Below are positions 182 through 61,100 of a stretch of 64,000 nt of DNA, one piece after another. The stretch is from the NCBI GenBank assembly GCA_905178155.1, contig CAJINV010000006.1, forward strand, positions 4,341,938-4,405,937, written 5' to 3'. Under the pieces are notes generated by a model that searched no databases, was not told the origin of the DNA, and saw nothing but the letters and a program-made list of their open reading frames with translations. Origin of the DNA: Amoebophrya sp. A120 (Eukaryota; Protista; Dinoflagellata). Within the stretch, counting starts at the first letter, position 1. Each line of letters begins with the position of its first letter. Position numbers and translations under genes: made by a program.

Positions 182-3100
182 CACCTGCGGGCGGGTTCAG
201 TGCGGACGGGGGAGCTGAGCAGGATCTAGATCTGTTGAAGCAGTCCTCTTTGTCCACCTCTGCATGGTACGCGTTTTATCGGGATATGGACCGGAATAAC
301 AACAACCTCGTCTCCATGATCGAATTCGAAGCGGTATTGTGAGGAAAAATCTTTCCTCCCCATATTGAAAGCGCATCCATCTTCTGGAAACTTGTGATGC
401 AGATTTGTGAACACAAGTCGCGTCTGTCTTGCAAGAGGGCAAGTGCAGGCTGTCCGGCACGTTATGCAGGCGATTTGTAATGCTGCAAGCCCTACAGGGC
501 AGCCGTCTGCCATGCTAGGCGCCTACACCAAAAGGCCCCGCCCTAGGGTTGCGATCTGACTGCGTGCAGTGCTCTACTGCAACACGGATTTGATTTGTGT
601 ACTCAAATACAGCATCACAAATTTCTTTGTCGATATGGGGAGGGGGGATCTTTCCTTCTGATAAGCGGGGTTGCTTTCTTTAAAATACCCCGACGAATCC
701 ACGGACGCGTCGAGTCGGAAGAATATCCTGTGCAAAAGTACCGTACGCGTAGTAATTGCAAGCATGGATGACAGGGTAAATCCGCGCTACAAATTGTTCC
801 ATGTGTCATGCTGAGCCAAGTTGTATATGCAATTTCTAGTATTATTACCTAGGTAGTGCGATGCTTTTGCAATGCATAAAGAGAAGGAAGAAGCTACTCC
901 AGTTGTTAGATAAGGACGGCTCCGGCGAGCTGACATTTGAGGAATTCGGGCAGGTCCTCGGGTTCAGCGAAAAGGAAATCTACAAGGCAAAGGATGACTA
1001 CCAGAAGAAAAACCTCGGGAAAGACGTATGCAATGTAAAAGCATCGTACTAGTATGAATTGCATTACAAATTAGCCCAGCATTACAAATTGAATTTGTAA
1101 TGCTGATTCACCTTGAGAAAGAAATTTGTAATGCATGCATGCAATTACTACGAATACGATGTTGCTTTTGCTCAGGATAAGACGGGGTGAATCGCAATAT
1201 CCGGTGGAGCGCGACGGAAGAATTTGATTTCCACGCGAGAATCAAAGAGTACGGCAGGAGGTCCCGGAGCACCACGCCGTCGCAGCGGCACTTATCCTGA
1301 GTAAAAGCCCCACACCCCATAGTCAAGTTGGGAAACCTGCAATACAAATCAACAAGCTTTGGCTGTTGCCCATCACAGGTTTTGGCTTGCAATGTGATCG
1401 CGTTTAGCTAGCGCAGCTGCGTCACAAATCTAGCATCTTATGCTGATACGAGCATCACAAATTTCAAAACAGCACTAGAGATGAATGCGTCCTCTCATGG
1501 GGCTCCTCCGCATGAGAAACATTTTAAGCATGCAGATTTGCATGACAAGAACTAAGTAAGTATGGGGTGTGACGTTTTTCCTCAGGATAGCACTCGAAGA
1601 AGATCTACACGGACGAATCCGTGCGGAAAAATATTACAGTGAAAAATGCCCCCACACGTCCGAAAGTTGCAATAATTTGTGATGCGAAGTTTCCAAATGA
1701 AAACTTTTTGTCATGCGTGAAAGAACTATGAGTCTTACCTTTCTGATGCAGAGTCTAGTCGTATACAGCATCGCTTGCACCATCACAAGAGCTGCTCTTG
1801 CTGGGATCTTTTGCAATGCAAATCTTTGCTATTCACGATTGAAGATCTGTGATGCTGATACATGCAAGAGAGCGAGTGTTTCCTTTGGAAAGGTTTGCAA
1901 TACAAATGCTTGAAGTTCATCTGGGGTGGGGGCATCTTTCATTGTCATAAAAAAGCACATGCGCATGATCTCTGCCAGCGACATGTCGCCGGTGCCGCTG
2001 TATTGTGAGGAAAAATCCCCCCTCCCCACAGTGCTCAAAACGGAAATCTGTATTGCTGATTTGTGACCACAGATCGTCTCTCTCTTGCAAGAAGGCAACT
2101 ACGTCAGAGGTGTCCGTCGCACTGCGCGGCGGATTTCTGATGCTGTTGGACCTTCATGGCAGCCGTCTAGCATGCGAAACAGAGACTATACGCAAACAGC
2201 CCCAGCACAACTCAGGCTTGCAACCTGCCTGCGATTCCATCCTGCAAGACAAAGCGAATTCGTGGACACCAATCCAGCAACAGAAATTTCCGTTTCAAGA
2301 TGGGGACGAGGGATTTTTCATTTTCATAGGCTCCTGCCGGGTGGTCGGGTGTCGAAATCAGCTTCTTCAAGTAGGTCGAGAACGAATTTGAGCTCCGCGG
2401 GAACGGGAACAAACAAGTCCATGACGAACCAGTCCTTGACAGACGAATCAACGCAGCAGGGCGGTGGAACGACGTTGCAAGACCACGCTTTTCCCGAAAT
2501 GGAGCAGCAAGACGGGCGGGGAACGAACTATATATGCAATGCAAAAGCATCGTGCTCGTATAAATGCATTACAAATTTCCTCTGCGTGGTGAGAAATAAA
2601 ATCTGTAATGCGGATTTACCTTGCCAAAGAAATTTGTAACGCATGATTGCAATTACTACGACTACGAGTACGAGTACGATAGTTTTGCACAGCATACTAC
2701 AATCGGTTTAGCAACGACAACATGCAACAGGGGCAGCAAAGTGCTGGACAGCATAGTCTATCAAATGTAAAAATGTCTGGGTCTGGAAGAATGCATGTTT
2801 GTCATGCTTGTCTGGCATGACTCTTGAATCTGTCATGCAAGTTACCCAAGAGCCCCATTTTTCTGTGATGCAGAAGCGCACTTTGTCATGCAGAATAGGC
2901 AACACCTGGAAGCTCAGAAACTTGTGATGCTGAGCCAGCATTTCTGGCCTCATCATGAGACGCCACCCAGCATCACAAGTTTCCAGACCCAGACATTTTT
3001 ACATTTGATATAGTCAACATATGAAGAAATCCAGCTCTGCAGGGACCACAAATTCAGCTCCTATCAAACGCAAAAATGTCTGGGTCTGGAAGGATGCGAA

Positions 3101-6100
3101 CTTGTGATGCATACTTGGATCACACAAAAATCTGTCATGCTTAGACAGCAAAGGGAGCTTGCTCCTTTTCCTGTCGCCGAAAGAAGATGCTTGTCATGCG
3201 GATTAAGCATTGCGAAACTGTCTCAAAACCTGCGATGCTAGGCCTTGCATGGCACACCTTCTGTGTCAAGCAGACACAGCATCACAAACCTCAGCAACCT
3301 TCCAGACCCGGATATTTTTGCAATGTATAGCTCCTTCGACGAGACAACAACAGCTGAGTTCCGCTGGCGGCGGAGCGAACAGTGCAACTACCGGGAATAA
3401 TGCGATGGAGCTCATTCCCTTGCAGGAAGACCAGCAGATGACAATGATCTCCGAGACAACGACAATTATCAACCGGTCCGCAACTATGGAACTGTCAGGA
3501 TCGAAATCAACAAAATCGAAATAATTTGTGATGCATAAAATAGATACCAGTTGGAGCCTCAGTTTCCAAGTGGCGCATGACAAATTTCAGGAGCTGCACC
3601 AAAATCCAGTCTGTCATGCTGTTTGGGCAAAGAAGGCTGCTCCTGTCGTGCTACTCTGGCAGCACATCGCCTTCCCCTAAACAGGCTTGCATCGGTCTCA
3701 TTTGCCTGCTCCCCAACACAGGCCTTACTTGCCCAACATTTTATGCATTACAAAACTTTTCGAATTTATCGCTTTCGATCCTGACACATCCATAGCAACC
3801 GCACCGACCAAAACTACTGCCGAAGAGCCGCCAAAGGAATTCGACTACGCCGCTTTTGTATCGCAAGAAAAAACTGTTCCACTGTGAACTTGTGATGCAT
3901 AAAATGGAAGATTGAACTATTTGTCTTGCTACTTCTGCAAGGCATCGGATTTTTAAGCGTGTTTTCCCTATGGGAAATGCGCGCACGGCATGTGTAACAA
4001 ACTTGTGATGCAGATCTTGCAAAATGAAAATTATCACAGTGAAGCAGTTTTTTCGTGGGATAGTTTAAGAAGAAGCAGCAAGCACCAAGCACTGCGCCAA
4101 CAACGCTAACCGACACGAAAAACCAGAACAATCCAGGGTTCAGTCGGAAGTCCCACATTGTTGACCACCCATATCGTACGAAAAAAGTGTTTCACTGAAA
4201 GGATTTTGCAAGTTTTGCATCACAAGTTTGTTCTGCATGACAGAGAAAATTTGCCCTGCGAGATTTCCAAGGGAAAGCACCGCTAAAGATCCATTGTCTT
4301 GCATGTGTGGCAAGACAAACACTTCTGAGATACATTTTCTGCATTACAAGTTCACAGTGAAACAGTTTTTTCTTGCGATAACCCGAAACGGTGGACCAAT
4401 CGGTACGGGCACGTGGATCCGAAAACGCCGAAGCAGTTTCGCGACTCGTTTGACGGATTCGGGTTGTTTTCTACGGAGCATTTGATCATGCAACAGGAGT
4501 GGAAGATCCCGCCCGGTACGGGGGAGGACGACTTTTCCCAATCGAAATGGCGATCGTCCGGTGCACCGCCCAATTGGGTCGACCCGAAGAAGGCGCTGCA
4601 GAAGAAGAAGGACAACATGATCATCGAAATGAAACTGTTCCGGGATTTATCAACTTCAAATATGTCTGGGTCTGGAAACTTGTAATGCTGAGCTGTGAGA
4701 AGCAAGTAGTGAATTCTCTGTAATGCACAGCCAAGCATGAGAAATCTTTGCGCTGCTTAGTGTTACGCTTTCCGCATGACAAAGTGCGTTTTGCATGACA
4801 AGCAAGAAGGTCTCTTCTTGGACACGCATCACAAACTCTTCCGTCATGCCAAGCAAGCATGACAAACCTTGCATCCATCCCGACCCAGACATATTTGCAA
4901 TGCATAGGATTTTCTGGAGTCCAAATACGGGGCGTACGGCTATGAAGGGATGGAGCGGATTATCCTGAGGCAAAACGATCCCACCCCATAGTCAAGATGG
5001 GAAATCTGCTACACAAATCCCTAAGCTTTGGCTGTCGCGCATGACAAATTTGGGCTTGCAATGTACTTTCGTGTTTAGCTTGTGCAGCAGCGTACCAGAT
5101 CCAGTTTGTCATGCTGATTCGAGCATGACAAATCTCACAGCACCACCGGGAAACGCCTCTCATCCTCATGGGTCTCCGCAAGAGAAACACTTCAAGCATG
5201 CAGATTTGCATTACAACTCTGGGGTGGGGACGTTTTCGCACAGGATACGGATCTTCAAAATGATGGACACGAACAGCTCTGTATCAAATGCAAATATGTC
5301 TGGGTCTGGAAGGATGCAACTTGTGATGCTGCCTTTGGACTCTACATAAAATCTGTATTGCGTGAACAGCACAAGAGGTGTAATTTGTGCTACGCGTATG
5401 GCGGACGCAGAAACTTTTCTTCAAGAAACTTTTTTTTTTTACCCATGACCTCGGCCTGTGCATGATAGGCCTTGCAACTTTATATAACGGGTTTACGAAG
5501 GGAGTAGCAAGCCCTGCCACGGCTCATGCCAAGCCAATCGCGTAAGCACTTGCGAAGACGCTTCAGCAGCAACAGGTGCTGCGGGCTTTTGGTGTTCCGC
5601 TAGTCTTGGTCCCGTGTCCCTTTCATTCCCGCACGCCAGCGCCCGTCTTAATCGGGCTTGATGCTACCGGGGCACGCGCCTTCTTGCGCAGCACACGCTG
5701 TGCGGAGGCCACCTTCTGTGTTTCACCGAAGGAGCTGACAAGTGCGCCGCCTGAGGTCGCCATCCCCCTTCGAACGTATTCTGGCGACCCTTAGGGAGGG
5801 TAAAATACGGCCCAAATAGCGTTCTCAAGTGCGGGAAGGCTTCTGCGCCGTTTCCGGAAGCAACGTCGCGGAGAAGGGCGCTGCCGGCCCTTGGCCAATC
5901 TGCCAGAACCCAGCGCGACGCCGGCGACCGTGCGCATAGACAAACCAACCCGCACGAACGGCGCCTCTTGCGCAGAGTTGCCTCGTAGCTCGAAGATGTC
6001 CGACCTCGTCTTGAGGAGACACGCCGAAAACACCAGAGGGGGGCCCCTCGGAGGGGGGTTGGGGGGGTGGGTTGCGCGACCCCCCCTGCGTCCATCATAC

Positions 6101-9100
6101 CATGCGGGCTAGCAAAAAAAGGGGGTCCCGAAGGGGGGGGGGTTTACTCCCCCCCTCCGGGGCCCCTCGAGCCGGCATTTTTGCGCTGCCCAAAAGGATT
6201 TCCCGTTGTCTGCGTTGCCGCCAGGCCGGGCGAAAGACCTGGGGGCTTAGGGCAGTGTGGGGAAGCCCGGCGGAAGAAAGCCCACTGCGCGCGGGGCTCT
6301 GCGAGGTTTTTCTCGTTCTAAGCTAGAGCGCCTCCACGCCGCTAAACCTCGGCGGGGCCCCGCAGAACAGCAGCAGAGAAGATTCAAAGCAACGCCCGTC
6401 CTTTCCTCTGTTTCGGGGGTAGTGAGGTGATGCGCCCAAGCCATGACAGCCCGTCGGCACCTCTCACACTGCTAACGCGTAGCTTTGGTGGCACGAGGAG
6501 CCGGCGATAGTGCCTGCTCTCACAGTAGCCATCACCCCCTGCGGCAGGACCCTCGCCGCACGCACAGACCCTGAGAGGCCGCTTTCCAATTGGTCGCCGA
6601 ATGCCTGAGCGGCTCAGACTGTTCGTCCTGGGTTCTCTTTCTAAGCCGGAGTCAAGGAATGGCTGCGCTAGCGGTTAAGCCGTCCTATCAAGAGGGGGCC
6701 GGCGGCAGGCGAGCAAAAATCGACGGTAGGGCCCGCGCTTGGTATTAGGATGCACAGCTATGGGCAAAAAAAAAAGTTTTTTGAAAAAAAGTTTCTGCGT
6801 CCGCCATAACGTGGAGAGGAGATTTCTCAAGCGTTATGAGCATCAGAAAGCCCTCGCAAAATCTCTGATGCTGGGGCATGCATCACAGACCTCATGGGTC
6901 ATGCAAAATCTGCATGACAAACAACTGCACTCGCCCAGACCCAGACATTTTTGCAATCCATAGTCCGACCGGTTGGGCGTTTCCGCGTTTACCGCGGCCT
7001 TGCAATCGACTCTGAAGTACCCCGACGATGGCTCGATTTCCTTCAACGCACAGAGAAGACGGGTGAATCTGTTTCTCATCATGGATTTGGACGGAATGGG
7101 GAGCTTGGATCGGTACAGAGTTGTACTACAGTTTTGTTTCAGTATCTTGTTGTGATCATGTAGTTGTCATTCTGCAACGCAAATCGCTTTTCGTTTGCGT
7201 TTCCCGCATGACAAATTCATCTAGCCTCGATGATTAAAAAAAAGGTACGAATTCTGCCGTGGTTTGACCCAGCAGCTGGACGCCGGAGTGAATCTGGACG
7301 AGAAATTATTGCAATGAAAAATGCCCCCACCCCGGAACTTGGGAGCATTTGTATTGCAAACCTTTCCAAAGGAAACACTCGCCCTCTTGCATGTATCAGC
7401 GTCGCAGATTTTCAATCGTGAATAGCAAAAATTTGTATTGCAAAAGATCCCAGCAAGAGCGGCGCTTGTCATGCAAGCGGCGCTTTATACGACAAGACTC
7501 TGCATCATGAGAAAGATTCATAGTGCTTTCATGCATGGCAAAAAGTTTTCATTTGGAAACTTCGCGTCACAAACTACTGCAAAATTCGGGGTGGGGGCAT
7601 TTTTCACTGTGATAGAAATTCACCCGCCGCCTCCAGCGGTGGGGTAACGAGAAATCGAAGTGGGTTTTGCTGGCGAAGGGGGCGAAAAATTTGAAAAAAC
7701 CACCGCGGAAAACGTGGCACGATTCTTTGTCCATCGTGAAGCCCGAGAACCTATTGAGAGGAAAAATCCCCCTTCCCCATATTGAAGAGGCATCTTTTCG
7801 AAAATTGATGTTGCTGATTTGAGGTCACAAATCACATTTGTTTTGCAAGAAGACCAGGGCAGAAGCTTCCGCCCCATTACGGAAGCGATTTGTCATGCTG
7901 TTGGGCCTAAAGGGGAGCCGTTTGCCATGCTGAGCAACTAGACGCATACGCCCCTACCTAGCCTGGCGATCTGGCCGCAGTGCTTCCCTGCAATACAAAT
8001 CTGATTTGTGTACGCAAATCCAGCATCACAGATCTCTTTTTCGATATGGGGAGGGGGGATTTTTCCTTTTGATAGAACCCGGTGTCCTATCTAGCAAACG
8101 TCGGACTGTCCGGGGGAAACTCCACGTCGGTGCAGGCGAACAGCGAGGAATTAGCCCGGGCGCAACGGTATCAAATGCAAATATGTCTTGGTCTGGAACA
8201 AACTTGTGATGCAAGGACGGGAATAGTGAGCACACTGTAATACGCTACACAGCATGACAAGTTTTTCCGTGGTTCAGAGTTGCGCACCGCGCATGAGAAA
8301 CTGCGTTTTTGCATGACAGACGCGAGGACCTCCTCGCGGGCACGCAATACAGAGTTCAGAGTCATGCCAGACTAACATGACAAATCTCGCAATCTCCCAG
8401 ACCCAGACATATTTGCAGTTCATAAAAGGGCGAACGCGTTTATCAACGTGAGGAAGAAGCTAGAGCCGATCTATTCCCGGCCGGGCACGATGGGAAACAG
8501 CTATGCATTGCAAATATGTCTGGGTCTGGATGGTTGCAACTTGTGATGCTGCCTTTGGATTCTACACAGAATCTGTCTTGCATGATCAGCAAAAGAGGCC
8601 CATTTTTTGCTACCCGGAGAGGGCTCTCATGCAGTATAGGCATCAGAAAGCCCTCAAAAAATTTGTGATGTTAGGGCATGCATCACAGACACCATGGGGC
8701 ACGCAAAATGTGCATGACAAGCGCTGCACTCTTCCAGACCCAGACACATTTGCATTTGATAACAGCGGGTGCGCGACCAGTTTCGGGCCCCCAAGACCGA
8801 CTACCAGTCCGGATCTGTCGCAGCTGTTTAACATCCTATATCAAAAGGAAAAATCCCCCCTCCCCATATCGAAAAGGCATCCGTTCGAAAATCTGTGATG
8901 CTGATTTGTGGCCACAAATCAGGTCTGTCTTGCACGAGAGCAACGCCAGAGCTTTCGCCGCTTTACGCAGGCGATTTGTAATGCTGCTGCACCAACAGGG
9001 CAGACGTCTGCCATGCTGAGCGCCCACCTCTAGCCAGCCCCTTCCAGGCTTTTTATCTGCCTGCACTCCTATACTGCAAGACAAAGCTGAAGCTGATTTG

Positions 9101-10209
9101 TGTACACAAATCCCGCAACACAGATTGCCACTTTGATATGGGGAGGGGGGTTTTTTTCTTTCGATATCCTGCCCAAATCGAGCAAGGATTCCTCCGGGGA
9201 CAGTAACCGCGGCGTTTTGTCCGCACTAATGAACGCTTCGAAACCAAAAATGAGTGAGAAATCTTTCCTAGCGGATGAGCACAGCCTCTATGCATTGCAA
9301 ATATACCTGGGAGGTCGGGAGGAATGCAAGTTTGTCATGCTCGGCTGGTATGACTCTTAACTCTGTGATGCATGAGCAGGAAAAAAGCCTGCCCCTCGCC
9401 TGTCAACATGCAAAAACGCAGTTCTTTGTCATGCGCAAAGCGAAACACATAGCAGCTCGACAACTTGTCATGCTTGGCCGCGTATTGCAGTGCTTACCCA
9501 TCAATCACAACTTTGCATCACAACTTTCCAGACATCCTGGGCTATTTGCAGTGCATAGCCTCATGCCGGCAACTACGGGGGATGCGGAGGATGATGATGA
9601 AGTGTCGGACATGCTTATCAAATGCAAAAATGTCTGGGTCTGGAAGATTTGTAGACTTGTCATGCATATTTTCCAGAAGCCACGATGTCTGTGATGCATG
9701 CCGTAGCATCACAGATGTGTATCGGGCTTTGTGATACCTCTACCGCATGAGAAATACCCTCTCCACGTAGGACAAACCCGACCCCTCTTGCTGGTCATGC
9801 AATACAATTTTTTTTAGAATCCACAGACAGCATCACAAGTTGTGAGCTTCCAGACCCAGACATTTTTGCATTTGATAATGCTGAAAAACCTGCAAAAGCG
9901 GTTTTTGCAACAGGAGCACGTGCGGGAAGAGCGGAAATCACGGGCCTTGTCCGAAACGGTTGACTTTGCGGAAATGATGTGCAGGATATGCAATGCAAAA
10001 GCATCGTACTAGTATAAATTGCATTACAAATTAGCCAGCATTACAAATTGAATTTGTAATGCTGATTTGCCTTGAGAAAGAGATTAGTAAATGCATGGCT
10101 GCGATTACTACGAGTGCGATACTTTTGCAGTGCATACAGGAGTGCGAACAGCAACGCGATCGCGCAGATGAGCAGCGTCGCGAACTTTGGAGTACAGATT
10201 TCGTCGTGA
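182..10209 (+). CDS. Multi-EF-hand calcium-binding protein, 5'-partial, split by 23 complete introners and one GT-AG intron (802 aa visible)
   Basis: Removing each TA..TA element plus one 5-bp DR gives a continuous ORF (184-10209 minus 7617 nt = 2409 nt) ending at TGA 10207-10209. EF-hand-like loops: DRNNNNLVSMIE, DKDGSGELTFEE, DTNSSDRLGVSA, DLDGMGSLDRYE. The two EF-hand pairs share an LKYPD linker. Confidence 0.85.
335..663. mobile_element. Introner family B (representative; ~315-330 bp; TIR TAT.....GGAAAAATCCCCCCTCCCCATA)
   Basis: DR AGCGG/AGCGG; removal joins MIEFEA to GLLSLKYPDE. Other copies: 2001-2328, 7752-8074, 8839-9166, 35664-35978, 50413-50733, 57193-57513, 61718-62039. Confidence 0.92.
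1027..1179. mobile_element. Introner family C (representative; ~145-165 bp; TIR TAT....TGCAAAAG(T/C)ATCGTACT)
   Basis: DR AGACG/AGACG. Other copies: 724-878 (opposite orientation), 2533-2696, 9987-10136, 16794-16938, 17998-18148, 18188-18346, 20857-21019, 22160-22308, 25931-26078, 46819-46968, 53599-53748. Confidence 0.92.
1293..1589. mobile_element. Introner family D (representative; ~275-300 bp; TIR TATCCTGAGTAAAAACGTCCCCACCCCA)
   Basis: DR GCACT/GCACT. Other copies: 4961-5247, 19600-19878, 21212-21493, 25601-25874, 26131-26420, 31704-31985, 39228-39506, 43663-43942, 50785-51063, 57565-57843, 63867->64000. Confidence 0.92.
1632..1949. mobile_element. Introner family E (representative; ~305-320 bp; TIR TATTACAGTGAAAAATGCCCCCACCCC)
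   Basis: DR AAAAA/AAAAA. Other copies: 7307-7614 (opposite orientation), 17664-17976, 31357-31662, 47541-47858, 54321-54638. Confidence 0.92.
2759..3010. mobile_element. Introner family A (representative copy; ~245-295 bp; TIR TATCAAATGCAAA(A/T)ATGTCTGGGTCTGGAA); most abundant family, with several internal subtypes
   Basis: DR TAGTC/TAGTC. Other copies: 3062-3329, 4648-4906, 5282-6962 (hosts the nested element), 8169-8424, 8502-8761, 9289-9557, 9616-9877, 13421-13682, 15991-16251, 16309-16582, 18871-19132, 19951-20214, 22359-22642, 23317-23574, 23747-24008, 24394-24660, 24901-25154, 25265-25533, 27171-27456, 27770-28014, 28514-28790, 29432-29687, 29799-30067, 30397-30674, 41815-42078, 42133-42394, 42642-42888, 45230-45481, 46491-46746, 47040-47333, 48029-48292, 48394-48655, 51159-51432, 51708-51969, 52482-52740, 52856-53110, 53272-53526, 60052-60306, 60390-60651, 60919-61196, 61398-61659, 62615-62883, plus copies at +6780 in the duplication. 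Confidence 0.93.
3485..3794. mobile_element. Introner family F (representative; ~305-316 bp; TIR TATGG..(G)TGTCAGGATCGAAATC)
   Basis: DR GCAAC/GCAAC. Other copies: 15303-15618, 26761-27074, 48985-49292, 52083-52389, 55765-56072, 58863-59169, 62265-62576. Confidence 0.92.
3859..4062. mobile_element. Introner family G (representative; ~200-220 bp; TIR TATCGCAAGAAAAAA(C/G)TG; several subtypes)
   Basis: DR TTTTG/GTTTA. Other copies: <1-181, 4172-4380, 16989-17199, 31029-31243, 36732-36941, 43040-43258, 43328-43532, 44963-45175, 48745-48947, 55525-55727. Confidence 0.9.
5397..6808. mobile_element. 1412-bp non-autonomous TIR element nested inside a family A introner
   Basis: ~50-bp TIR TATGGCGGACGCAGAAACTTTT...CCCAT / ATGGGC...AAAAGTTTCTGCGTCCGCCATA; DR ACGCG/ACGTG. 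The host introner sequence resumes exactly after it. GC-rich interior with no credible ORF. Confidence 0.9.
7113..7244 (+). other. Canonical GT-AG intron (132 nt) flanked by a GGTAC direct repeat
   Basis: CG|GTACAG...AAAAG|GTACGAA; removal completes the EF-hand loop DLDGMGSLDRYEF. Confidence 0.85.
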
Positions 10210-46154: not shown

Positions 46155-49100
46155 ATGACCAGCACAACATCTGGTACGTCTTTGTTTTCTTGTGCGGTAC
46201 ACGAATCGAAGAGCTTTTGCATTAAACTCTGCATAACGTCACCAAGCGCAAGCGTAAGCAGCAGGATAATCCAAACCGGCGGTACAACAAAACCTTCTGG
46301 CAACCACCTGGTTCGCCACGCGCACAGCAAAACGCCCCGCGGTCGCGTTGGCATGATTTCCTCCCCCGCTTCTCCGAGCCGGCCGCTCGGCGCACAGCGC
46401 AAATCCAACTCCTGCCCGGACATTGCGGCCATGGGTGGGGCAGCAAGCTCGGAGCAAGAGGACATGCGGCAATTGGGTGGCAACAGCACCTATCAGATGT
46501 AAATATGTCTGGGTCTGGAAGATTGCAAGATTTGCCATGTTAATCTGGTATGACTCTGCACTCTGTATTGCGTGGCCACGAATAGCCTCTCTCGCCTGGT
46601 GCCATGCAAAAACGCAGTTTCTCATGCGGAATGCGCAGCACAGAGGCACGAAAAAACTTGTCATGCTTGGCTCCGCATTACAGTTCACCTCTTGTGTACT
46701 GACTTGCATCACAAGTTTCCAGACCCAGACATATTTGCAATGCATAGCACCAGCGGCCACGCGAGCCAAATGTCTACCGATGGCATGAGCAATGTGGCGG
46801 TCGGGTGTCGCTCGAGCATATCCTGTGCAAAAGTATCGTACTCGTAGTAATGGCAGTCATGCATTACAAATCTCCATCCCAAGGCAAAACAGCATGACAA
46901 ATTGCATTTGTCATGCTGACCGAATTTGTAATGCGATTTGTACTAGTACGATGCTGTTGCAATGCATAGAGCATAGCGGGTGACGATTTAGATGACCAGT
47001 TTGAAATCGCTTCGCAGCAAATTGACGCACAGCTTGCTGTATGCATTGCAAATACGCCTGGGTCTGGTTCTGGAAGGTTGCAACTTGTGATGCTGGCTTT
47101 GGATTCAGAAAAAATCTGTATTGCGTGACCAGCCAAAGCGGTCCAGTTTGTGCTACGTGGAGAGCTACCGTTTCTCATGCGGAATAGGCATTACCATTAT
47201 CAGGAAGCCATCTAATAGTGGTCTGTGATGCTAGGTGATGCATTGTAGGCGTCGCGGGTCATGCAAAAGGTGCATGACATACAAACGCTGCACCCTTCGT
47301 CCAGACCCAGATCGATATTTGCAGTTGATGATATGCAGCGGGAGGTGACCTGGATCATCCTGTCGCCGGTAGTTCGCGTAGTGGAGGTGGTGACCTGGAG
47401 AAACTGCACCAGGGACAAATGCAGGCACCTGGTGCACCTGGAGCTACCGCAGCTGGTTGTTTTGCTTTTGCCGGTGGAGTTCCGCAACAACAGCTTCTCC
47501 CTAGCATCTGCGAAACTTTGAACGAAGATATGGCCTCGGATATTACAGTGAAAAAAGCCCCCACGCCCAAAATTGCAATAGTTTGTGATGCGAAGTTTCC
47601 AAGTGAAAGCTTTTTGTTATGCATGAAAGGAGTACGAATCTTTCTGATCCTGATGCAGAGTCTAGGCGTATATCGCAGCGCCTGCATGACAAGCGCCGCT
47701 CTTGCTGGGATCTTTTGCAATTACAAATTTTTATTTTTGCTATTCACGACTGGGAATCTGTAATGCTGATAGATGCAAGAGGGCGAGTGTTTCCTTTGGA
47801 AAGGTTTGCAATACAAATGCTCCCAAGTTCGGGGGTGGGGGCGTTTTTCATTGTAATATCGGAGCTGGGAGCGAAGACGGCATCTTCCCGGGGAAAGATG
47901 AGAAATAATGACCGCAGCTCTTCAAGCAAGGAAAGTTGCACGGCCGGCGACCGAGTTGTAGCTGGTGGAACCGCGGCAGCCGCTTCTTCTATGGAGGACC
48001 TGCCCCGCGTGCCCAGTAACAATACCATTATCAAATGCAAAGATGTCTGGGTCTCGAAGAGTACAAGACTTCTCATGCGGGTTCAACATGACGCATGAGG
48101 TCTGCAATGCAGGAGCTAGCATGACAGATTCTGTGAGATCTCTACCATGCCTATCCTGCATGAGAAACTCACTCCCAACTTGGTCAAAAGTGGTCAGCTT
48201 TTGGTAGTCATGCAACACAAATTTTTGCATGATCCAGATTTAGCATGTCAAGCTGCATCCTTCCAGACATCCAGGGATACTTGCAGTGCATAACCATGAC
48301 GGACGAACAGTTTTCCGAACTGGGCGGCGCGTTCAGCCGGGCGAGTAGCGGAATTATTCGGCAATCCACGAAGGATAGTACCATTACCAGGGCTATCAAC
48401 TGCAAAAATGTCTGGGTCTGGAAGAATGCAACTTGTGATGCTGCATTTGGATTCCAAAAAGATCTGTATTGCATGAGTACCAAAGGGAATGCAATTTTTG
48501 CCACGCTGAGAAGGCATTTTCCATGCGGAATAGGCATCAAGAAGCCCTCAAAAAGTCTGTTATGCTAGGGCATGCATCACAGACATCGTGGCTCATGCAA
48601 AACGTGCATGACAAGTCTCAGAGTCTTCCAGACCCAGACATATTTGCAATTCATAAGGGCCGCGGCGTTGAGTAGCGCAGGTTCCTCGCCAATGCAGGGG
48701 CCTGTATCAACTACCGCAACAAGCGCGGGAAGATGTGGGCGATCTATCGCGAGAAAAAAGTGTTTACAGTTACACATTTGTTCGAATTTCAGCATCACAA
48801 AGAAGACTTGTAATGCGCAGACCACAACATCTTCAAGGGAAAACCCGCACGAAATGAGGCTGGCAAGCATTTTCTGCATGACAGAGGTTGTCTGTCTTGC
48901 TGGTCTTGCGTCAGAGTGTGTAACTGTAACACTTTTTCCTTGTGATACGATCCTCTGCTGCTCTACTACAACATGCGGGAGGAGTATGGAAGCGTCAAGT
49001 TTGAAATCGACAAAGTTGAAATGATTTGTCATGCATAAATTGCAAGGCATGAAGTGCCTATCTTGCCGGGATGGCAAGCGAGGCCGATTGTGAGCCTGTT

Positions 49101-52100
49101 TAGGGTTTGAAATAGAGCTACTAAACTAGCATGACAAAAGCAGTCTTCTGTGCCCAAACAGCACGGCAAATTGGATTCCGGTGCTCGGAAGATTTGTCAT
49201 GCGCCGCTTGATAAGTGGGCTTCCGACTGGTATCGGTTTTATGCGTGACAAACTATTTCAACTTTGACGATTTCGATCCTGACACATCCATAACGATGTG
49301 GGAATAGTCATAGCCTTTCTCCGCAACTTCGCGCCGCAGTTCAGGCCCACGGTTGTACTAGTTCGCTCCAGCAGCAGGTCGTACTGGGACAACATGATGA
49401 TTTCACTGGAGCAGGAGCTCACGTAGGGCACCACCAGCGTCCTGGTGCTTGTAGTACCGCTGGTCGTCTGGAGGAACAACTTGCGGCGAGCAGGCCATCT
49501 TGCTCGCACACAACAACCACATATGAGAGTGCACAACTCCCCCTCCCCCTCATTTGTGTTGCATGAACAGCAACACAAGCGCGGGCAAAGATGCAGCTTT
49601 TGCATGACAAATTCCTAGGGGACTGTAGTGCTGTTTTGGATTCCGGAATTTGTCATGCAAACAGTGCCACAAGGCAGCGACTGGATTTGGGATTTTGCAT
49701 GACAAAGGAGGGGGAGGGGGAGTTGTGCACCGTGATACCACACCGGCACAGCACCGGGAAGACGAAGAGCAACTCCAGCTTCACTGCCGTGCTTGGGAGT
49801 GGGCGCGCAGCAATAGTGGCGGATCTACTGCTTCCCAAGTGGTGCAACAACGAGTTGCACTATCGGGTGGAAGAGAACAACCGGGTGGGGCGGGTGGGGC
49901 AGCCCAGAGCAGTGCTGCACCTAGAGAAGTCGTAGTACCTGCTGCTCAAGTAGGTGAACAAGAGCGAAATGGAGTAGACGAGGAGGTTGTGGTCCCGGAG
50001 GGGACGGTTCTGAATCTCCAAAATCTTCTATGACAGTGCACAACTCCCCCTCCCCCTCATTTGTCATGCAAAACCCCAAATCCAAGGGCTTTCCTGTGGC
50101 ACTGTTGGCATCACAGATTCCGGAAGCCCAAACAGTACTACACTAAGCGCATGAACTTGTCATGCACATGCACCAGGTGTGGCTGTGTTTGTATTGCTGT
50201 TCATGCAATACAAATGAGGGGGAGGGGGAGTTGTGCACTCTGATATCTTCAACCACGTGGCCCTAATCATGAAGCGGACGACAATGACGACGCTGCCTCT
50301 TCGGGAACGGCCTCGACCAATCTGGACGCGATTGAGGATGGGCAGCAGGACAGATTGAGCGACGCCATGACCAGGCTGAGCTTGTCAAAACGGGGAAGCA
50401 CTTTCGACTCCTTATCGAAAGGAAAAATCCCCCCTCCCCAAATCAAAATGAAATTTCTGATGCTGGATTTGTGTACACAAATCCGCGCTGTCTTGCTGGA
50501 GAGCACTGCAGGCCCATACTAAGTGTGAGTAGAGAGGTTTTGGCCTGGGCACTTAGCATGAAAAACATCCGCGCTGTAGGCCCAACAGCATGACAAACCG
50601 CCTGCACAGTGCGGCGGTTGTCTGTGGAGTTGCCTTCTTGCAAGACAGACACGATTTGCGACCACAAATCAGCATCACAAATTTGCAAAAGTTTTCTTTT
50701 CAGTATGGGGAGGGGGGATTTTTCCTATTGATACTCCTACGGCAGCAACATGTCGGGTTTGATGAGTGATGATGGGAACAGCCCTATCCTATGTAAAAAC
50801 ATCCCCACCCCAGAGTTGTCATGCAGATTTGCAATGACAAGAACATTTGTGATGCGCATCCCTATGATGGGCCTTTCCAGTCGTGTTTTGGAATTTGTAA
50901 TGCTGTAAACAGGATACGTATCTCGATTTGTAATGCGGCTGTCCTTGCTAACCTGCACTACACTACGGGCTGCAACTTGTCATGCGTGGCGTCCAAAACT
51001 CCTGGATCTGTGTTGCAGAGATCCCAACTTAACTATGGCGTGGGGACGTTTTTACTCAGGATAAACCCCGGTGGTTATCTCGGCAGGAACAAGAAGAGGA
51101 GCGAGAAACTGGCCGCCAGGAGAGGTGGCACCACGGGACATGGCGAAGGAGGAGCTGCTATCACCTGCAAAAGTGTCTGGGTCTGGAAAGAATGGGATTT
51201 GTGATGCTACCTGTCGACCACACAAAAATCTGTATTGCAAGAGAGGCAAAGAAAAAACACTCAGATGGTTGCCACCAGGAGAGGGCATTTCTCATGCAGT
51301 TTAGGCATGAGCAAATCTTTGCGAAAGCTGTGATGCTAGAGAGTGCATCAGAGGCATCGGTGGAAGCCATGTACAATTTGCATGACAAACTCCCAATAAA
51401 TCTTCCAGACCCAGACATATTTGCATTTGATAGCTGCGTCGTCGTCCATGGACCAGCGGCAAGAAATTACGGTGGTCACCATGAGTGACGATCAGCTCGC
51501 CGCCGCCGGCAGGGCCGGGCTTCTGGGCAACTTAGAAGGCATCGACCAAGATCGGCCACCGTCTAAGAGCAGCAGCGGTAAAAAGCCGCTTTCCGGTGCA
51601 GGCGGGGGCGCTCGCACCATTACGGATGATACGCTGATGGACACGTATGTGCTGGGCCACGCGAGCAGCCTCGATGGGGGGTCGCAAGACCGAGCGCATG
51701 GTGGGTATATCAAATGCAAAAATGTCTGGGTCTGGAATGTTGCCGGGTTTGTCATGCATACTTTGTATGACCCAGGATGTCTGTAATGCACGACCTACCA
51801 TCACAGACTTTTAGAACCCTTCCTGATGCCTACCCCGCATGACAAATGCCCTCCCCGCGTAGCATAAACTAGACTCCTCTTGCTGGTCATGCAATACAGA
51901 TTTTTTTAGAGTCCAAAGCCAGCATCACAGGCTCCAACCTTCCAGACCCAGACACTTTTGCATTTGATAGGGTCCTCGCAAGACCGGGCGGGTGCTGGGG
52001 CTAACTGTCCGCCCGATCATCGCACCTGCTCCGAGGGAACCCGTTCGGCGCTCGGGGAAGAGGATATGCGGGCGATGCTGGATATGGATGTGTCAGAGTT

Positions 52101-55100
52101 GAAATCGACAAAGTTGAAATGATTTGTAATGCATAAAAACCATGACCCGAGGCACGTGTGTTGCAGAGCAGGCAAGTGAGGCCGATTGTAATCCTGTTTG
52201 GGGTTACAGCTCGAGCTGCTAAAGTAGCATGAGAAAATCGCTCTTCTTTGCCTAAACAGCATGACAAACTGGATTTAGGGACCGCCGAAATTTGTCATGC
52301 GCCACTTAGAAACTGGGTTCCAACTGGCATCCATTTTATGCATGACAAATTATTTCAACTTTGTCGATTTCAACTCTGACACATCCATACTGGATGACGG
52401 CGAGAGTCGGGCCGCGGGGACCACGACGCGGGGCATCCTGGCCCGCTTGGCCGGGTCCGCGATCGGCTTGATTCCGGGTGTTATCAAATGCAAAAATGTC
52501 TGGGTCTGGAAGATTCTGAGACTTGTCATGCACGGTTTGCATGACCCACGATGTCTGTGATGCATGCCCTAGCATCACAATTTTTTAAAGGGATTCTTGA
52601 TGCCTAGTCCGCATGACAAATGCCCTCTCTGCGTAGCAAAAATTAGACTCCTTTTGCTGCTCATGCAACACAAATCTTTTAGACATCCAAATGCAGCTTC
52701 AGTTGCATTCTTCCAGACCCAGACATATTTGCAGTTGATAGGTGTAGGTTTCGCGGCCAGCACCCTGGGTCTCTCGACGATCAAGGAGGCGCAGAGCAAA
52801 AAGACAAGCCCGAAGCTGACAGCGGTGGAGGATCAATTTGCCCAGCCAGAAGACCTATCAAATGCAAAATTGTCTGGGTCTGGAGGTCTGGAAGATTTGC
52901 GATGCTTGTCTGGCATGACCAAAAGGTTTGCGATGCGTGTCCAAGAAGAGACCCTTTTGCCTGTCAAGCAAAAACGCAGTTTGTCATGCGAAAAACGCAA
53001 CACAAAGAAGCGCAGATATTTCTCATGCTTGGATGTGCATTACAGAGCATTCACAACTCCCAACGCAGCATGACAAGTTTCCAGACCCAGATCGATATTT
53101 GCACTGGATAAGATCACAGCCAGTTGGCACAGATTGCTGCGCACACTGCGACGCACATGCGGCAACAGCGAGAGAAGCGAGAGTTGCAGGAGCAGAAGTT
53201 GCTGCTTGCACGATCATCTTCCGAAAGCGTTCAGACTCCTGGTGGAGGTGCAGCGGCGGCGAGTACTTCTATATGGATTGCAAATACGTCTGGGTCTGGA
53301 AGAATGCAAGTTTATCATGCTTGTCTCACATGACTCTTGAATTTGTCATGCACATTACCCAAGAGCCCCATTTTTCTGTGATGCAGAAACGCAGTTTGTC
53401 ATGCAGAATAGGCAACACCTAGTAGAAGCTCAGAAAATTGTCATGCTGAGCGAGCACTTGTGGCCTCCTCATGATACGCCACCCAGCATCACAAGTTTCC
53501 AGACCCAGACATATTTGCAATGCATAGCACCAGCGGCCACGCGAGCCAAATGTCTACCGATGGCATGAGCAATGTGGCGGTCGGGTGTCGCTCGAGCATA
53601 TCCTGTGCAAAAGTATCGTACTCGTAGTAATGGCAGTCATGCATTACAAATCTCCATCCCAAGGCAAAACAGCATGACAAATTGCATTTGTCATGCTGAC
53701 CGAATTTGTAATGCGATTTGTACTAGTACGATGCTGTTGCAATGCATAGAGCATAGCGGGTGACGATTTAGATGACCAGTTTGAAATCGCTTCGCAGCAA
53801 ATTGACGCACAGCTTGCTGTATGCATTGCAAATACGCCTGGGTCTGGTTCTGGAAGGTTGCAACTTGTGATGCTGGCTTTGGATTCAGAAAAAATCTGTA
53901 TTGCGTGACCAGCCAAAGCGGTCCAGTTTGTGCTACGTGGAGAGCTACCGTTTCTCATGCGGAATAGGCATTACCATTATCAGGAAGCCATCTAATAGTG
54001 GTCTGTGATGCTAGGTGATGCATTGTAGGCGTCGCGGGTCATGCAAAAGGTGCATGACATACAAACGCTGCACCCTTCGTCCAGACCCAGATCGATATTT
54101 GCAGTTGATGATATGCAGCGGGAGGTGACCTGGATCATCCTGTCGCCGGTAGTTCGCGTAGTGGAGGTGGTGACCTGGAGAAACTGCACCAGGGACAAAT
54201 GCAGGCACCTGGTGCACCTGGAGCTACCGCAGCTGGTTGTTTTGCTTTTGCCGGTGGAGTTCCGCAACAACAGCTTCTCCCTAGCATCTGCGAAACTTTG
54301 AACGAAGATATGGCCTCGGATATTACAGTGAAAAAAGCCCCCACGCCCAAAATTGCAATAGTTTGTGATGCGAAGTTTCCAAGTGAAAGCTTTTTGTTAT
54401 GCATGAAAGGAGTACGAATCTTTCTGATCCTGATGCAGAGTCTAGGCGTATATCGCAGCGCCTGCATGACAAGCGCCGCTCTTGCTGGGATCTTTTGCAA
54501 TTACAAATTTTTATTTTTGCTATTCACGACTGGGAATCTGTAATGCTGATAGATGCAAGAGGGCGAGTGTTTCCTTTGGAAAGGTTTGCAATACAAATGC
54601 TCCCAAGTTCGGGGGTGGGGGCGTTTTTCATTGTAATATCGGAGCTGGGAGCGAAGACGGCATCTTCCCGGGGAAAGATGAGAAATAATGACCGCAGCTC
54701 TTCAAGCAAGGAAAGTTGCACGGCCGGCGACCGAGTTGTAGCTGGTGGAACCGCGGCAGCCGCTTCTTCTATGGAGGACCTGCCCCGCGTGCCCAGTAAC
54801 AATACCATTATCAAATGCAAAGATGTCTGGGTCTCGAAGAGTACAAGACTTCTCATGCGGGTTCAACATGACGCATGAGGTCTGCAATGCAGGAGCTAGC
54901 ATGACAGATTCTGTGAGATCTCTACCATGCCTATCCTGCATGAGAAACTCACTCCCAACTTGGTCAAAAGTGGTCAGCTTTTGGTAGTCATGCAACACAA
55001 ATTTTTGCATGATCCAGATTTAGCATGTCAAGCTGCATCCTTCCAGACATCCAGGGATACTTGCAGTGCATAACCATGACGGACGAACAGTTTTCCGAAC

Positions 55101-58100
55101 TGGGCGGCGCGTTCAGCCGGGCGAGTAGCGGAATTATTCGGCAATCCACGAAGGATAGTACCATTACCAGGGCTATCAACTGCAAAAATGTCTGGGTCTG
55201 GAAGAATGCAACTTGTGATGCTGCATTTGGATTCCAAAAAGATCTGTATTGCATGAGTACCAAAGGGAATGCAATTTTTGCCACGCTGAGAAGGCATTTT
55301 CCATGCGGAATAGGCATCAAGAAGCCCTCAAAAAGTCTGTTATGCTAGGGCATGCATCACAGACATCGTGGCTCATGCAAAACGTGCATGACAAGTCTCA
55401 GAGTCTTCCAGACCCAGACATATTTGCAATTCATAAGGGCCGCGGCGTTGAGTAGCGCAGGTTCCTCGCCAATGCAGGGGCCTGTATCAACTACCGCAAC
55501 AAGCGCGGGAAGATGTGGGCGATCTATCGCGAGAAAAAAGTGTTTACAGTTACACATTTGTTCGAATTTCAGCATCACAAAGAAGACTTGTAATGCGCAG
55601 ACCACAACATCTTCAAGGGAAAACCCGCACGAAATGAGGCTGGCAAGCATTTTCTGCATGACAGAGGTTGTCTGTCTTGCTGGTCTTGCGTCAGAGTGTG
55701 TAACTGTAACACTTTTTCCTTGTGATACGATCCTCTGCTGCTCTACTACAACATGCGGGAGGAGTATGGAAGCGTCAAGTTTGAAATCGACAAAGTTGAA
55801 ATGATTTGTCATGCATAAATTGCAAGGCATGAAGTGCCTATCTTGCCGGGATGGCAAGCGAGGCCGATTGTGAGCCTGTTTAGGGTTTGAAATAGAGCTA
55901 CTAAACTAGCATGACAAAAGCAGTCTTCTGTGCCCAAACAGCACGGCAAATTGGATTCCGGTGCTCGGAAGATTTGTCATGCGCCGCTTGATAAGTGGGC
56001 TTCCGACTGGTATCGGTTTTATGCGTGACAAACTATTTCAACTTTGACGATTTCGATCCTGACACATCCATAACGATGTGGGAATAGTCATAGCCTTTCT
56101 CCGCAACTTCGCGCCGCAGTTCAGGCCCACGGTTGTACTAGTTCGCTCCAGCAGCAGGTCGTACTGGGACAACATGATGATTTCACTGGAGCAGGAGCTC
56201 ACGTAGGGCACCACCAGCGTCCTGGTGCTTGTAGTACCGCTGGTCGTCTGGAGGAACAACTTGCGGCGAGCAGGCCATCTTGCTCGCACACAACAACCAC
56301 ATATGAGAGTGCACAACTCCCCCTCCCCCTCATTTGTGTTGCATGAACAGCAACACAAGCGCGGGCAAAGATGCAGCTTTTGCATGACAAATTCCTAGGG
56401 GACTGTAGTGCTGTTTTGGATTCCGGAATTTGTCATGCAAACAGTGCCACAAGGCAGCGACTGGATTTGGGATTTTGCATGACAAAGGAGGGGGAGGGGG
56501 AGTTGTGCACCGTGATACCACACCGGCACAGCACCGGGAAGACGAAGAGCAACTCCAGCTTCACTGCCGTGCTTGGGAGTGGGCGCGCAGCAATAGTGGC
56601 GGATCTACTGCTTCCCAAGTGGTGCAACAACGAGTTGCACTATCGGGTGGAAGAGAACAACCGGGTGGGGCGGGTGGGGCAGCCCAGAGCAGTGCTGCAC
56701 CTAGAGAAGTCGTAGTACCTGCTGCTCAAGTAGGTGAACAAGAGCGAAATGGAGTAGACGAGGAGGTTGTGGTCCCGGAGGGGACGGTTCTGAATCTCCA
56801 AAATCTTCTATGACAGTGCACAACTCCCCCTCCCCCTCATTTGTCATGCAAAACCCCAAATCCAAGGGCTTTCCTGTGGCACTGTTGGCATCACAGATTC
56901 CGGAAGCCCAAACAGTACTACACTAAGCGCATGAACTTGTCATGCACATGCACCAGGTGTGGCTGTGTTTGTATTGCTGTTCATGCAATACAAATGAGGG
57001 GGAGGGGGAGTTGTGCACTCTGATATCTTCAACCACGTGGCCCTAATCATGAAGCGGACGACAATGACGACGCTGCCTCTTCGGGAACGGCCTCGACCAA
57101 TCTGGACGCGATTGAGGATGGGCAGCAGGACAGATTGAGCGACGCCATGACCAGGCTGAGCTTGTCAAAACGGGGAAGCACTTTCGACTCCTTATCGAAA
57201 GGAAAAATCCCCCCTCCCCAAATCAAAATGAAATTTCTGATGCTGGATTTGTGTACACAAATCCGCGCTGTCTTGCTGGAGAGCACTGCAGGCCCATACT
57301 AAGTGTGAGTAGAGAGGTTTTGGCCTGGGCACTTAGCATGAAAAACATCCGCGCTGTAGGCCCAACAGCATGACAAACCGCCTGCACAGTGCGGCGGTTG
57401 TCTGTGGAGTTGCCTTCTTGCAAGACAGACACGATTTGCGACCACAAATCAGCATCACAAATTTGCAAAAGTTTTCTTTTCAGTATGGGGAGGGGGGATT
57501 TTTCCTATTGATACTCCTACGGCAGCAACATGTCGGGTTTGATGAGTGATGATGGGAACAGCCCTATCCTATGTAAAAACATCCCCACCCCAGAGTTGTC
57601 ATGCAGATTTGCAATGACAAGAACATTTGTGATGCGCATCCCTATGATGGGCCTTTCCAGTCGTGTTTTGGAATTTGTAATGCTGTAAACAGGATACGTA
57701 TCTCGATTTGTAATGCGGCTGTCCTTGCTAACCTGCACTACACTACGGGCTGCAACTTGTCATGCGTGGCGTCCAAAACTCCTGGATCTGTGTTGCAGAG
57801 ATCCCAACTTAACTATGGCGTGGGGACGTTTTTACTCAGGATAAACCCCGGTGGTTATCTCGGCAGGAACAAGAAGAGGAGCGAGAAACTGGCCGCCAGG
57901 AGAGGTGGCACCACGGGACATGGCGAAGGAGGAGCTGCTATCACCTGCAAAAGTGTCTGGGTCTGGAAAGAATGGGATTTGTGATGCTACCTGTCGACCA
58001 CACAAAAATCTGTATTGCAAGAGAGGCAAAGAAAAAACACTCAGATGGTTGCCACCAGGAGAGGGCATTTCTCATGCAGTTTAGGCATGAGCAAATCTTT

Positions 58101-61100
58101 GCGAAAGCTGTGATGCTAGAGAGTGCATCAGAGGCATCGGTGGAAGCCATGTACAATTTGCATGACAAACTCCCAATAAATCTTCCAGACCCAGACATAT
58201 TTGCATTTGATAGCTGCGTCGTCGTCCATGGACCAGCGGCAAGAAATTACGGTGGTCACCATGAGTGACGATCAGCTCGCCGCCGCCGGCAGGGCCGGGC
58301 TTCTGGGCAACTTAGAAGGCATCGACCAAGATCGGCCACCGTCTAAGAGCAGCAGCGGTAAAAAGCCGCTTTCCGGTGCAGGCGGGGGCGCTCGCACCAT
58401 TACGGATGATACGCTGATGGACACGTATGTGCTGGGCCACGCGAGCAGCCTCGATGGGGGGTCGCAAGACCGAGCGCATGGTGGGTATATCAAATGCAAA
58501 AATGTCTGGGTCTGGAATGTTGCCGGGTTTGTCATGCATACTTTGTATGACCCAGGATGTCTGTAATGCACGACCTACCATCACAGACTTTTAGAACCCT
58601 TCCTGATGCCTACCCCGCATGACAAATGCCCTCCCCGCGTAGCATAAACTAGACTCCTCTTGCTGGTCATGCAATACAGATTTTTTTAGAGTCCAAAGCC
58701 AGCATCACAGGCTCCAACCTTCCAGACCCAGACACTTTTGCATTTGATAGGGTCCTCGCAAGACCGGGCGGGTGCTGGGGCTAACTGTCCGCCCGATCAT
58801 CGCACCTGCTCCGAGGGAACCCGTTCGGCGCTCGGGGAAGAGGATATGCGGGCGATGCTGGATATGGATGTGTCAGAGTTGAAATCGACAAAGTTGAAAT
58901 GATTTGTAATGCATAAAAACCATGACCCGAGGCACGTGTGTTGCAGAGCAGGCAAGTGAGGCCGATTGTAATCCTGTTTGGGGTTACAGCTCGAGCTGCT
59001 AAAGTAGCATGAGAAAATCGCTCTTCTTTGCCTAAACAGCATGACAAACTGGATTTAGGGACCGCCGAAATTTGTCATGCGCCACTTAGAAACTGGGTTC
59101 CAACTGGCATCCATTTTATGCATGACAAATTATTTCAACTTTGTCGATTTCAACTCTGACACATCCATACTGGATGACGGCGAGAGTCGGGCCGCGGGGA
59201 CCACGACGCGGGGCATCCTGGCCCGCTTGGCCGGGTCCGCGATCGGCTTGATTCCGGGTGTTATCAAATGCAAAAATGTCTGGGTCTGGAAGATTCTGAG
59301 ACTTGTCATGCACGGTTTGCATGACCCACGATGTCTGTGATGCATGCCCTAGCATCACAATTTTTTAAAGGGATTCTTGATGCCTAGTCCGCATGACAAA
59401 TGCCCTCTCTGCGTAGCAAAAATTAGACTCCTTTTGCTGCTCATGCAACACAAATCTTTTAGACATCCAAATGCAGCTTCAGTTGCATTCTTCCAGACCC
59501 AGACATATTTGCAGTTGATAGGTGTAGGTTTCGCGGCCAGCACCCTGGGTCTCTCGACGATCAAGGAGGCGCAGAGCAAAAAGACAAGCCCGAAGCTGAC
59601 AGCGGTGGAGGATCAATTTGCCCAGCCAGAAGACCTATCAAATGCAAAATTGTCTGGGTCTGGAGGTCTGGAAGATTTGCGATGCTTGTCTGGCATGACC
59701 AAAAGGTTTGCGATGCGTGTCCAAGAAGAGACCCTTTTGCCTGTCAAGCAAAAACGCAGTTTGTCATGCGAAAAACGCAACACAAAGAAGCGCAGATATT
59801 TCTCATGCTTGGATGTGCATTACAGAGCATTCACAACTCCCAACGCAGCATGACAAGTTTCCAGACCCAGATCGATATTTGCACTGGATAAGATCACAGC
59901 CAGTTGGCACAGATTGCTGCGCACACTGCGACGCACATGCGGCAACAGCGAGAGAAGCGAGAGTTGCAGGAGCAGAAGTTGCTGCTTGCACGATCATCTT
60001 CCGAAAGCGTTCAGACTCCTGGTGGAGGTGCAGCGGCGGCGAGTACTTCTATATGGATTGCAAATACGTCTGGGTCTGGAAGAATGCAAGTTTATCATGC
60101 TTGTCTCACATGACTCTTGAATTTGTCATGCACATTACCCAAGAGCCCCATTTTTCTGTGATGCAGAAACGCAGTTTGTCATGCAGAATAGGCAACACCT
60201 AGTAGAAGCTCAGAAAATTGTCATGCTGAGCGAGCACTTGTGGCCTCCTCATGATACGCCACCCAGCATCACAAGTTTCCAGACCCAGACATTTTTGCAG
60301 TGCATATTCTAGCGGTGCTTCTCATTATTTCCTAGGAACGTCGCCTATTCGTCCCGAGCCCCAGCCCCTCCGGGAAGATCTTACGAGGGTACCAAATGCA
60401 AAAATGTCTGGGTCTGGAAGATTCTGAGACTTGTCATGCACGGTTTGCATGAGCCATGATGTCTGTGATGCATGCCCTAGCATCACAGGTTTTTTGAGGG
60501 ATTCTTGATGCCTATTCCGCATGACAAATGCCCTCTCCGCGTAGCAGATATTAGATTCCTTTTGCTGCTCATGCAACACAAATTTTTTAGACATCCAAAT
60601 GCAGCATCACAAGTTGCATTCTTCCAGACCGAGACATTTTTGCATTTGATAGAGGGCTCCTTCCTACCACGACCAAGATCTTCTGCTCCCGGCCAATGGT
60701 GCACCAGCCCGGACGCTCTCGGAAGCTGCTTTCCCGCGGCCTGACGATGCTGCTCTGATGAGTATGAGAGGGGACCACGTGATGGATGCTGATTCCTCAA
60801 ACGCCTTGTTAAATAACGTTAATGCGGCGGGAGGACGAGGACAAGCTCAAGGTGATACTACGTCGGGATTCTCGCAGGGGCAGGTCGAAGCCATGATGTA
60901 CCTCCACCAGGAACTCCATATGCATTGCAAATACCGATCTGGGTCTGGAAGGATGTTGCGAGGTTAGTCATGCTTGCATGGCATGACTGAAGAGTTTGTG
61001 AGGTCGTGAGTCCAAGAAGAGACCCCTTTGCTTGTCATGCAAAAAGAACGCAGGCTGTCAGGCGGAAAGAACCGCAACACTTAAGCGCGCAAATGTTTCT

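Follow-up and report, generated by a model that had tools for sequence, protein, structure and literature searches.

How does a gene whose intron contains a second, much longer mobile element still give an in-frame transcript, and what is the inserted element? The question is raised by a 64,000-nucleotide (nt) stretch of contig CAJINV010000006.1 of Amoebophrya sp. A120, hereafter the window, to which our element counts and motif densities refer. The window is crowded with introners, elements of 145–329 nt that start with TAT, end with ATA and have a 5-nt direct repeat directly outside (105 called, 71 with a perfect repeat). One of them, in the gene for a 1005-amino-acid EF-hand protein of A120, the one protein that the host-gene exon matches (at 100%), carries the long TAT..ATA element studied here (Table 1). 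We conclude that this nested element is probably a DNA transposon, non-coding and low in copy number, with TA..TA ends and a 5-nt duplication. It sits in an older introner; an integrase-type (Ginger/IS3EU-like) transposase encoded elsewhere likely moved it, and it likely leaves the RNA as a passenger when the host intron is removed.

The nested element terminates in TATG..CATA, and its inverted ends agree over 43 nt at 95% without gaps or, if one gap is allowed, over 50 columns at 92%. An 18-nt pattern built on these ends matches nothing else in the window (0.05 matches expected by chance). The 5-nt flanks ACGCG and ACGTG agree at 4 of 5 positions, whereas 6-nt flanks agree at 1 of 6. With the element excised and both flanks retained, the host introner has exactly 5 extra nt compared with 13 of 13 aligned family members; because all of these relatives lack exactly those 5 nt, the flanks represent a true target duplication. 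In DNA contigs, one relative continues past position 5396 without the nested element. The host introner measures 264 nt without the insertion and 1681 nt with it (5282–6962). The nested element is a real DNA-level insertion into a pre-existing introner, as the first-pass annotation of this sequence had held; that introners are themselves DNA transposons is already published (PMC7789003, PMC12130899).

Table 1 Features of the nested element, its host introner and the surrounding gene
Feature	Position	Strand	Basis
Upstream exon, EF-hand gene (P0001)	5252–5280	+	Contig joints, annotated protein
Intron removed from transcript, 1686 nt (5282–6967 equally good)	5281–6966	+	X6 and X8 contigs join 5280 to 6967; splice register
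Left part of host introner (family of ~262 nt, end TAT-N7-AAA)	5282–5396	+	Mean 79% identity to 13 relatives
Left target-site duplication copy, ACGCG	5392–5396	+	Site single in 13/13 host relatives
Nested TAT..ATA element	5397–6808	.	1412 nt, guanine–cytosine (GC) content 0.60, no coding sign; left junction crossed by DNA contig
Left terminal inverted repeat with T-tracts	5397–5446	+	50 columns, 92%
Central G/C-tract hairpin in nested element, weak	6122–6166	.	Self-match; z = -1.9, 10/200 shuffles fold equally well
Right terminal inverted repeat with A-tracts	6760–6808	-	Alignment to left end
Right target-site duplication copy, ACGTG, one C>T change	6809–6813	+	Flank comparison
Host introner, right part	6814–6962	+	Alignment to relatives
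Downstream exon, then canonical 132-nt GT..AG intron	6967–7112	+	Contig joints; X5 contig with 0 differences
Canonical GT..AG intron, 132 nt	7113–7244	+	Removed in same contigs as non-canonical introners of this gene

Contigs of the DNA runs X1, X2 and X3 (one sample) and of X5 (a second study) were aligned to the window at 82% likeness. An X2 contig (5342–5522) crosses the left junction of the nested element with 0 differences, at a depth of 26.5 compared with 27.6 for a unique exon contig. At 5879–6071 and 6336–6542, X1 contains a window-identical contig plus a second contig with 17 differences in ~200 nt; because the window's own copy lies near full single-copy depth (34.7–44.6 compared with 45.6), the divergent contig probably comes from an additional copy rather than from another allele. 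Further copies, on whose existence the first-pass reading depended, do occur: relatives ~91–92% alike are present in X1, X2, X3 and X5 over 5397–5811, 5874–6123, 6258–6459 and 6336–6542, covering most of the 1.4 kilobases (kb). The summed X1 interior depth of 85–227 corresponds to roughly 2–5 copies, a figure to be read as 'few' since depth is no true copy number. One X5 contig, aligned over 5397–5811 with 33 differences, extends 30 letters past the left end, and can be read, assuming a minus-strand reading of the record, as a candidate copy at another site. Because the DNA runs carry the insertion at near single-copy depth and the copies are ~92% alike, the nested element belongs to a low-copy, diverged family. 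Its end 20-mer has 0 matches in viral contigs, and the matches in metagenome contigs (two loci, L001 and L002) have the same flanks and no likeness past the 20-mer, which marks them as chance.

In kind, the host is a known A120 introner, because its ends match those described for this strain: TAT, 7 variable bases, AAA (Farhat 2021, PMC7789003). Among 89 curated, non-duplicated small elements in the window, this TAT-N7-AAA motif occurs at 142 of 178 ends and is missing from 36. Their duplication length is 5 nt, with a mean match of 0.91 and 63 of 89 perfect (figures inflated by a set chosen partly on the 5-nt match), compared with 0.22–0.38 for lengths of 2–4 and 6–9 nt. The motif GCATNACAA occurs at 9.2 per kb within small elements and 0.15 per kb outside. 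The nested element departs from this pattern: GCATNACAA is found 0 times in its 1412 nt (~13 expected at introner density, 0.2 at background), and its end agrees with those of small introners to base 4 only, with no AAA at positions 11–13 and the second-lowest profile score against the 178 ends. Its GC content of 0.60 compares with 0.48 for the window. The first-pass annotation had already described the TAT..ATA ends with their ACGCG/ACGTG repeat, the terminal inverted repeats of ~50 base pairs (bp) with poly-T/A tracts, the GC-rich, non-coding interior and the near absence of GCATNACAA, and all of these descriptions hold; of the insertion chemistry that it took to be the same as in introners, the TA..TA ends and the 5-nt duplication are shared, whereas the ends diverge after base 4. 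Two scans for other long inverted-repeat elements in the window found none. Mid-element, a G/C-tract run (6035–6170) contains an imperfect 45-nt hairpin; compared with shuffles, the central hairpins are not convincing (z of -0.3, -1.9 and -0.8).

The interior gave no indication of a protein. Across its 45 stop-free frames of at least 20 amino acids, Pfam yielded 0 matches above cut-off; three at expectation values of 0.04–0.09, all under cut-off, were taken as chance. The codon-usage score is negative in 6 of 6 frames, whereas each of three exon controls is positive in one frame. No frame has a significant synonymous excess against a relative, the best having 8 of 17 differences where ~5 are expected (p 0.08–0.11 before correction for six frames). 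For the longest interior frame, 0 of 1487 candidate longer proteins scored as a homologue, which is weak evidence, and the 10 Rfam matches are all under the gathering score. Pfam applied to 15 of the 47 long open frames of the window gave no match and no transposase. By these measures the nested element bears no sign of a cut-down transposase gene. The first-pass proposal of a deletion derivative of an autonomous element accordingly finds no support, there being no coding remnant and the relatives spanning most of the 1.4 kb. Having inverted repeats, a target-site duplication, related copies and no transposase gene of its own, the element has the properties of a non-autonomous DNA transposon with terminal inverted repeats.

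Removal of the whole nested structure is seen in runs X6 and X8 (one sample), each of which has one contig of ~3.6–3.7 kb joining 5280 to 6967. The stretch skipped is the host introner plus 5 nt; the same contigs skip 13 further listed elements, each likewise plus 5, and the 132-nt GT..AG intron (15 of 34 joints listed). The annotated protein P0001 reads MDTNSSDRLG across the junction, in frame. The first-pass annotation was therefore right about the frame and about the 1681 nt of the expanded host, whereas the intron removed is 1686 nt. No joint removing the inner element alone is present among the joints listed (15 of 34 in the transcript-like set, 15 of 275 in another contig set), and contigs drop rare forms. 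With just 9 and 4 reads placed and no joints, the raw RNA runs X9 and X10 say nothing either way, and the lack of X6 and X8 cover over 5604–6671 at 92% likeness was not used as evidence.

One splice register, with the intron running from 1 nt before TAT to 4 nt after ATA, fits all 14 listed introner joints of this one gene (2531–9170); an offset of 0 fits 11 and an offset of -2 fits 12. Such a register would account for introns whose 5′ dinucleotide is NT.. and whose 3′ end is unconstrained, in a strain for which a published figure legend gives introner borders as variable or unknown (Farhat 2021, PMC7789003, Fig. 3). A folding model predicts that all 26 end pairs of the host form around the real insert and around each of 5 shuffled ones, and that the paired ends of host and nested element form simultaneously. 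On this prediction, the insert need not leave first. In twintrons and stwintrons, one intervening sequence lies inside another and the inner intron must be spliced first. The present locus resembles them in having an element within an intron, and the folding model for it needs no inner-first removal. Among the twintron and stwintron papers listed, none is on Amoebophrya.

The closest described relative is A120 family 38 (Gozashti 2025, PMC12130899), which has 5 copies of 808–810 nt with inverted repeats of 49–53 nt is labelled 'Ginger' with '5-bp TSD, TA/TA termini' and is listed as making introns; the main text calls it reminiscent of Ginger, lacking Ginger's termini. Compared by description and not by sequence, the nested element shares with it the genome, the ~50-nt inverted repeats, the TA/TA termini, the 5-bp duplication, the low copy number and a length far beyond that of common introners. 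It differs in length (1412 compared with about 810 nt), in its position inside an introner whereas family 38 is listed as intron-making, and in its open reading frames, reported there with Copia/Gypsy similarity and not seen here by Pfam. The same paper lists as introners two further long families with inverted repeats, 196 (811 nt) and 86 (1619 nt), so length by itself does not prevent splicing. Family 25, an unclassified family of 4 copies with an alignment of about 1.45 kb, could, again going by its description, be that of the nested element. The introners of Farhat 2021 (PMC7789003), of which the host is one, likewise have a TAT start, inverted ends and 3–5-nt direct repeats; the nested element lacks their TAT-N7-AAA end and internal motif and is ~5 times longer. 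Because that study limited its clustering to introns of at most 1 kb (Table S7), a 1686-nt intron would fall outside it.

Beyond A120, IS3EU and GingerRoot elements (PMC10045372, PMC6839031) share the TA..TA termini, the inverted repeats and the absence of a fixed target sequence, and usually have a 6-bp duplication, which the flanks here do not form. GingerRoot elements are also larger (3.9–12.9 kb, inverted repeats of 100–150 nt) and encode an integrase-related transposase, whereas ours spans 1.4 kb and none was found. Ginger1 and Ginger2 (PMC6839031, PMC10045372) have inverted repeats and a 4–6-bp duplication, and TG..CA in place of TA..TA termini. In the literature searched, which left aside Farhat figures S19–S25, PNAS figure S9 and Roy 2023, we found no description of the nested element or of nesting in A120, and no paper treating IS3EU and introners together; the word 'nested' is absent from the main texts of PMC7789003, PMC12130899 and PMC9860276. 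Judged by its sequence features, the element is likely a new example of a transposon type that is already on record for A120, and not a new phenomenon.

The explanation that we favour has three steps. The nested element inserted into a pre-existing introner with a 5-nt target duplication; it would have moved by cut-and-paste through an integrase-type DDE enzyme encoded elsewhere, as its termini, its duplication length and family 38 suggest; and it would leave the transcript in one step, as a passenger removed through the host's own paired ends. It is plausible that the transposase class is shared with the small introners. Several points weigh against this explanation. Contigs cannot reveal splicing intermediates, the RNA nature of runs X5–X8 is a guess, and the insertion allele is presumed to be the source of the transcripts, whose exon pieces are identical to the window. 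The ends match those of small introners in the first 3–4 bases only, and the duplication is 5 nt where IS3EU and GingerRoot usually have 6. No transposase was found here, nor was one found in A120 by Farhat 2021 (PMC7789003).

On the first-pass reading, the nested element was mobilised by the same class of transposase as the introners, is possibly a trimmed autonomous element and, being unspliceable by itself, may survive only inside introns, to which positions between genes can be added. We consider this possible but doubtful. It is compatible with our explanation at this locus and differs only on the behaviour of other copies. The element lacks both features common to spliced introners, its sole placed copy is intronic and its copy number is low; the missing TAT-N7-AAA motif may keep the idea alive. 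With small elements occupying 70% of the host-gene span (insert excluded) and 46% of the window, however, chance alone leads one to expect a single nested copy. Because introners fill so much of the gene, nesting in one reflects the likelier landing place and says nothing on spliceability. There is no coding remnant, and similar long inverted-repeat families are listed as introns (PMC12130899), leaving survival only inside introns unsupported so far by the one nested copy.

Alternatively, the nested element could be a long introner that is spliceable alone, giving an intron within an intron with two-step removal and other copies in exons, which we think unlikely. Strong end pairing is predicted for it; at the register that fits 14 of 14 joints its own removal would begin at GT and restore the host exactly; and families 38, 196 and 86 are listed as intron-making, with family 25 compatible in size (PMC12130899). 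Against this stand the lack of an inner joint among the joints listed and of both the TAT-N7-AAA end and GCATNACAA. The folding model needs no prior removal for host pairing, and none of the weak Pfam labels of family 25 was found again in the nested element, although this is a weak test.

The TA..TA ends with flanking repeats resemble those of eliminated sequences, and the run type of X5–X8 is a guess, so the elements might be cut from DNA, as in ciliate-like somatic elimination, and not spliced from RNA. We judge this very improbable. A canonical GT..AG intron is missing from the joined contigs too, whereas DNA contigs retain that intron and span, at single-copy depth, the border between exon and introner at 7307, which favours RNA splicing; the organism is a dinoflagellate relative, and introners are reported as RNA-supported introns (Farhat 2021, PMC7789003). 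An assembly artefact or one-off foreign fragment, for which one might cite the single copy in the window and the failure of viral and metagenome contigs to yield more than a chance 20-mer, is scarcely credible given the left junction crossed with 0 differences, the interior at single-copy depth, the diverged relatives in two studies and the clean duplication.

Some further observations concern the small elements of the window. Their lengths fall into classes near 150, 205–217, 245–294 and 305–329 nt, the GCATNACAA array (9.2 per kb) is common to dissimilar families, and their 5-nt duplications have no base preference. Several have lost the final ATA (13421, 19951, 25265, 26131, 39228, 44963, 62616 and 18404), ending for example in ATG, AGA, ATC or ACA, with the flanking repeat kept; this suggests that the exact terminus may not be needed after insertion. 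Positions 46706–53526 and 53486–60306 form a 6.8-kb tandem duplication of 99.97% identity, either very recent or an assembly artefact.

Taken alone, the locus is an ordinary nesting of a transposon in an intron, of a type already listed for A120. The literature on this strain leaves two questions, namely the identity of the enzyme that moved the introners and the way in which introns lacking fixed splice sites leave the transcript. If the insertion allele is the source of the transcript, lengthening of the host introner from 264 to 1681 nt has not stopped its in-frame removal, which fits splicing guided by paired ends rather than by length. The nested element can also serve as a probe for longer, possibly autonomous copies. 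A bolder and rather improbable proposition is that the long TA..TA/5-bp elements of A120, without the AAA end motif and the GCATNACAA array, share one unreported integrase-family transposase with the ~30,000 small introners and are never spliced alone. If this were true, a comparison with introners would tell the transposition signal apart from that for U1-independent, non-canonical splicing, and the missing transposase would be reached through the longest copies.

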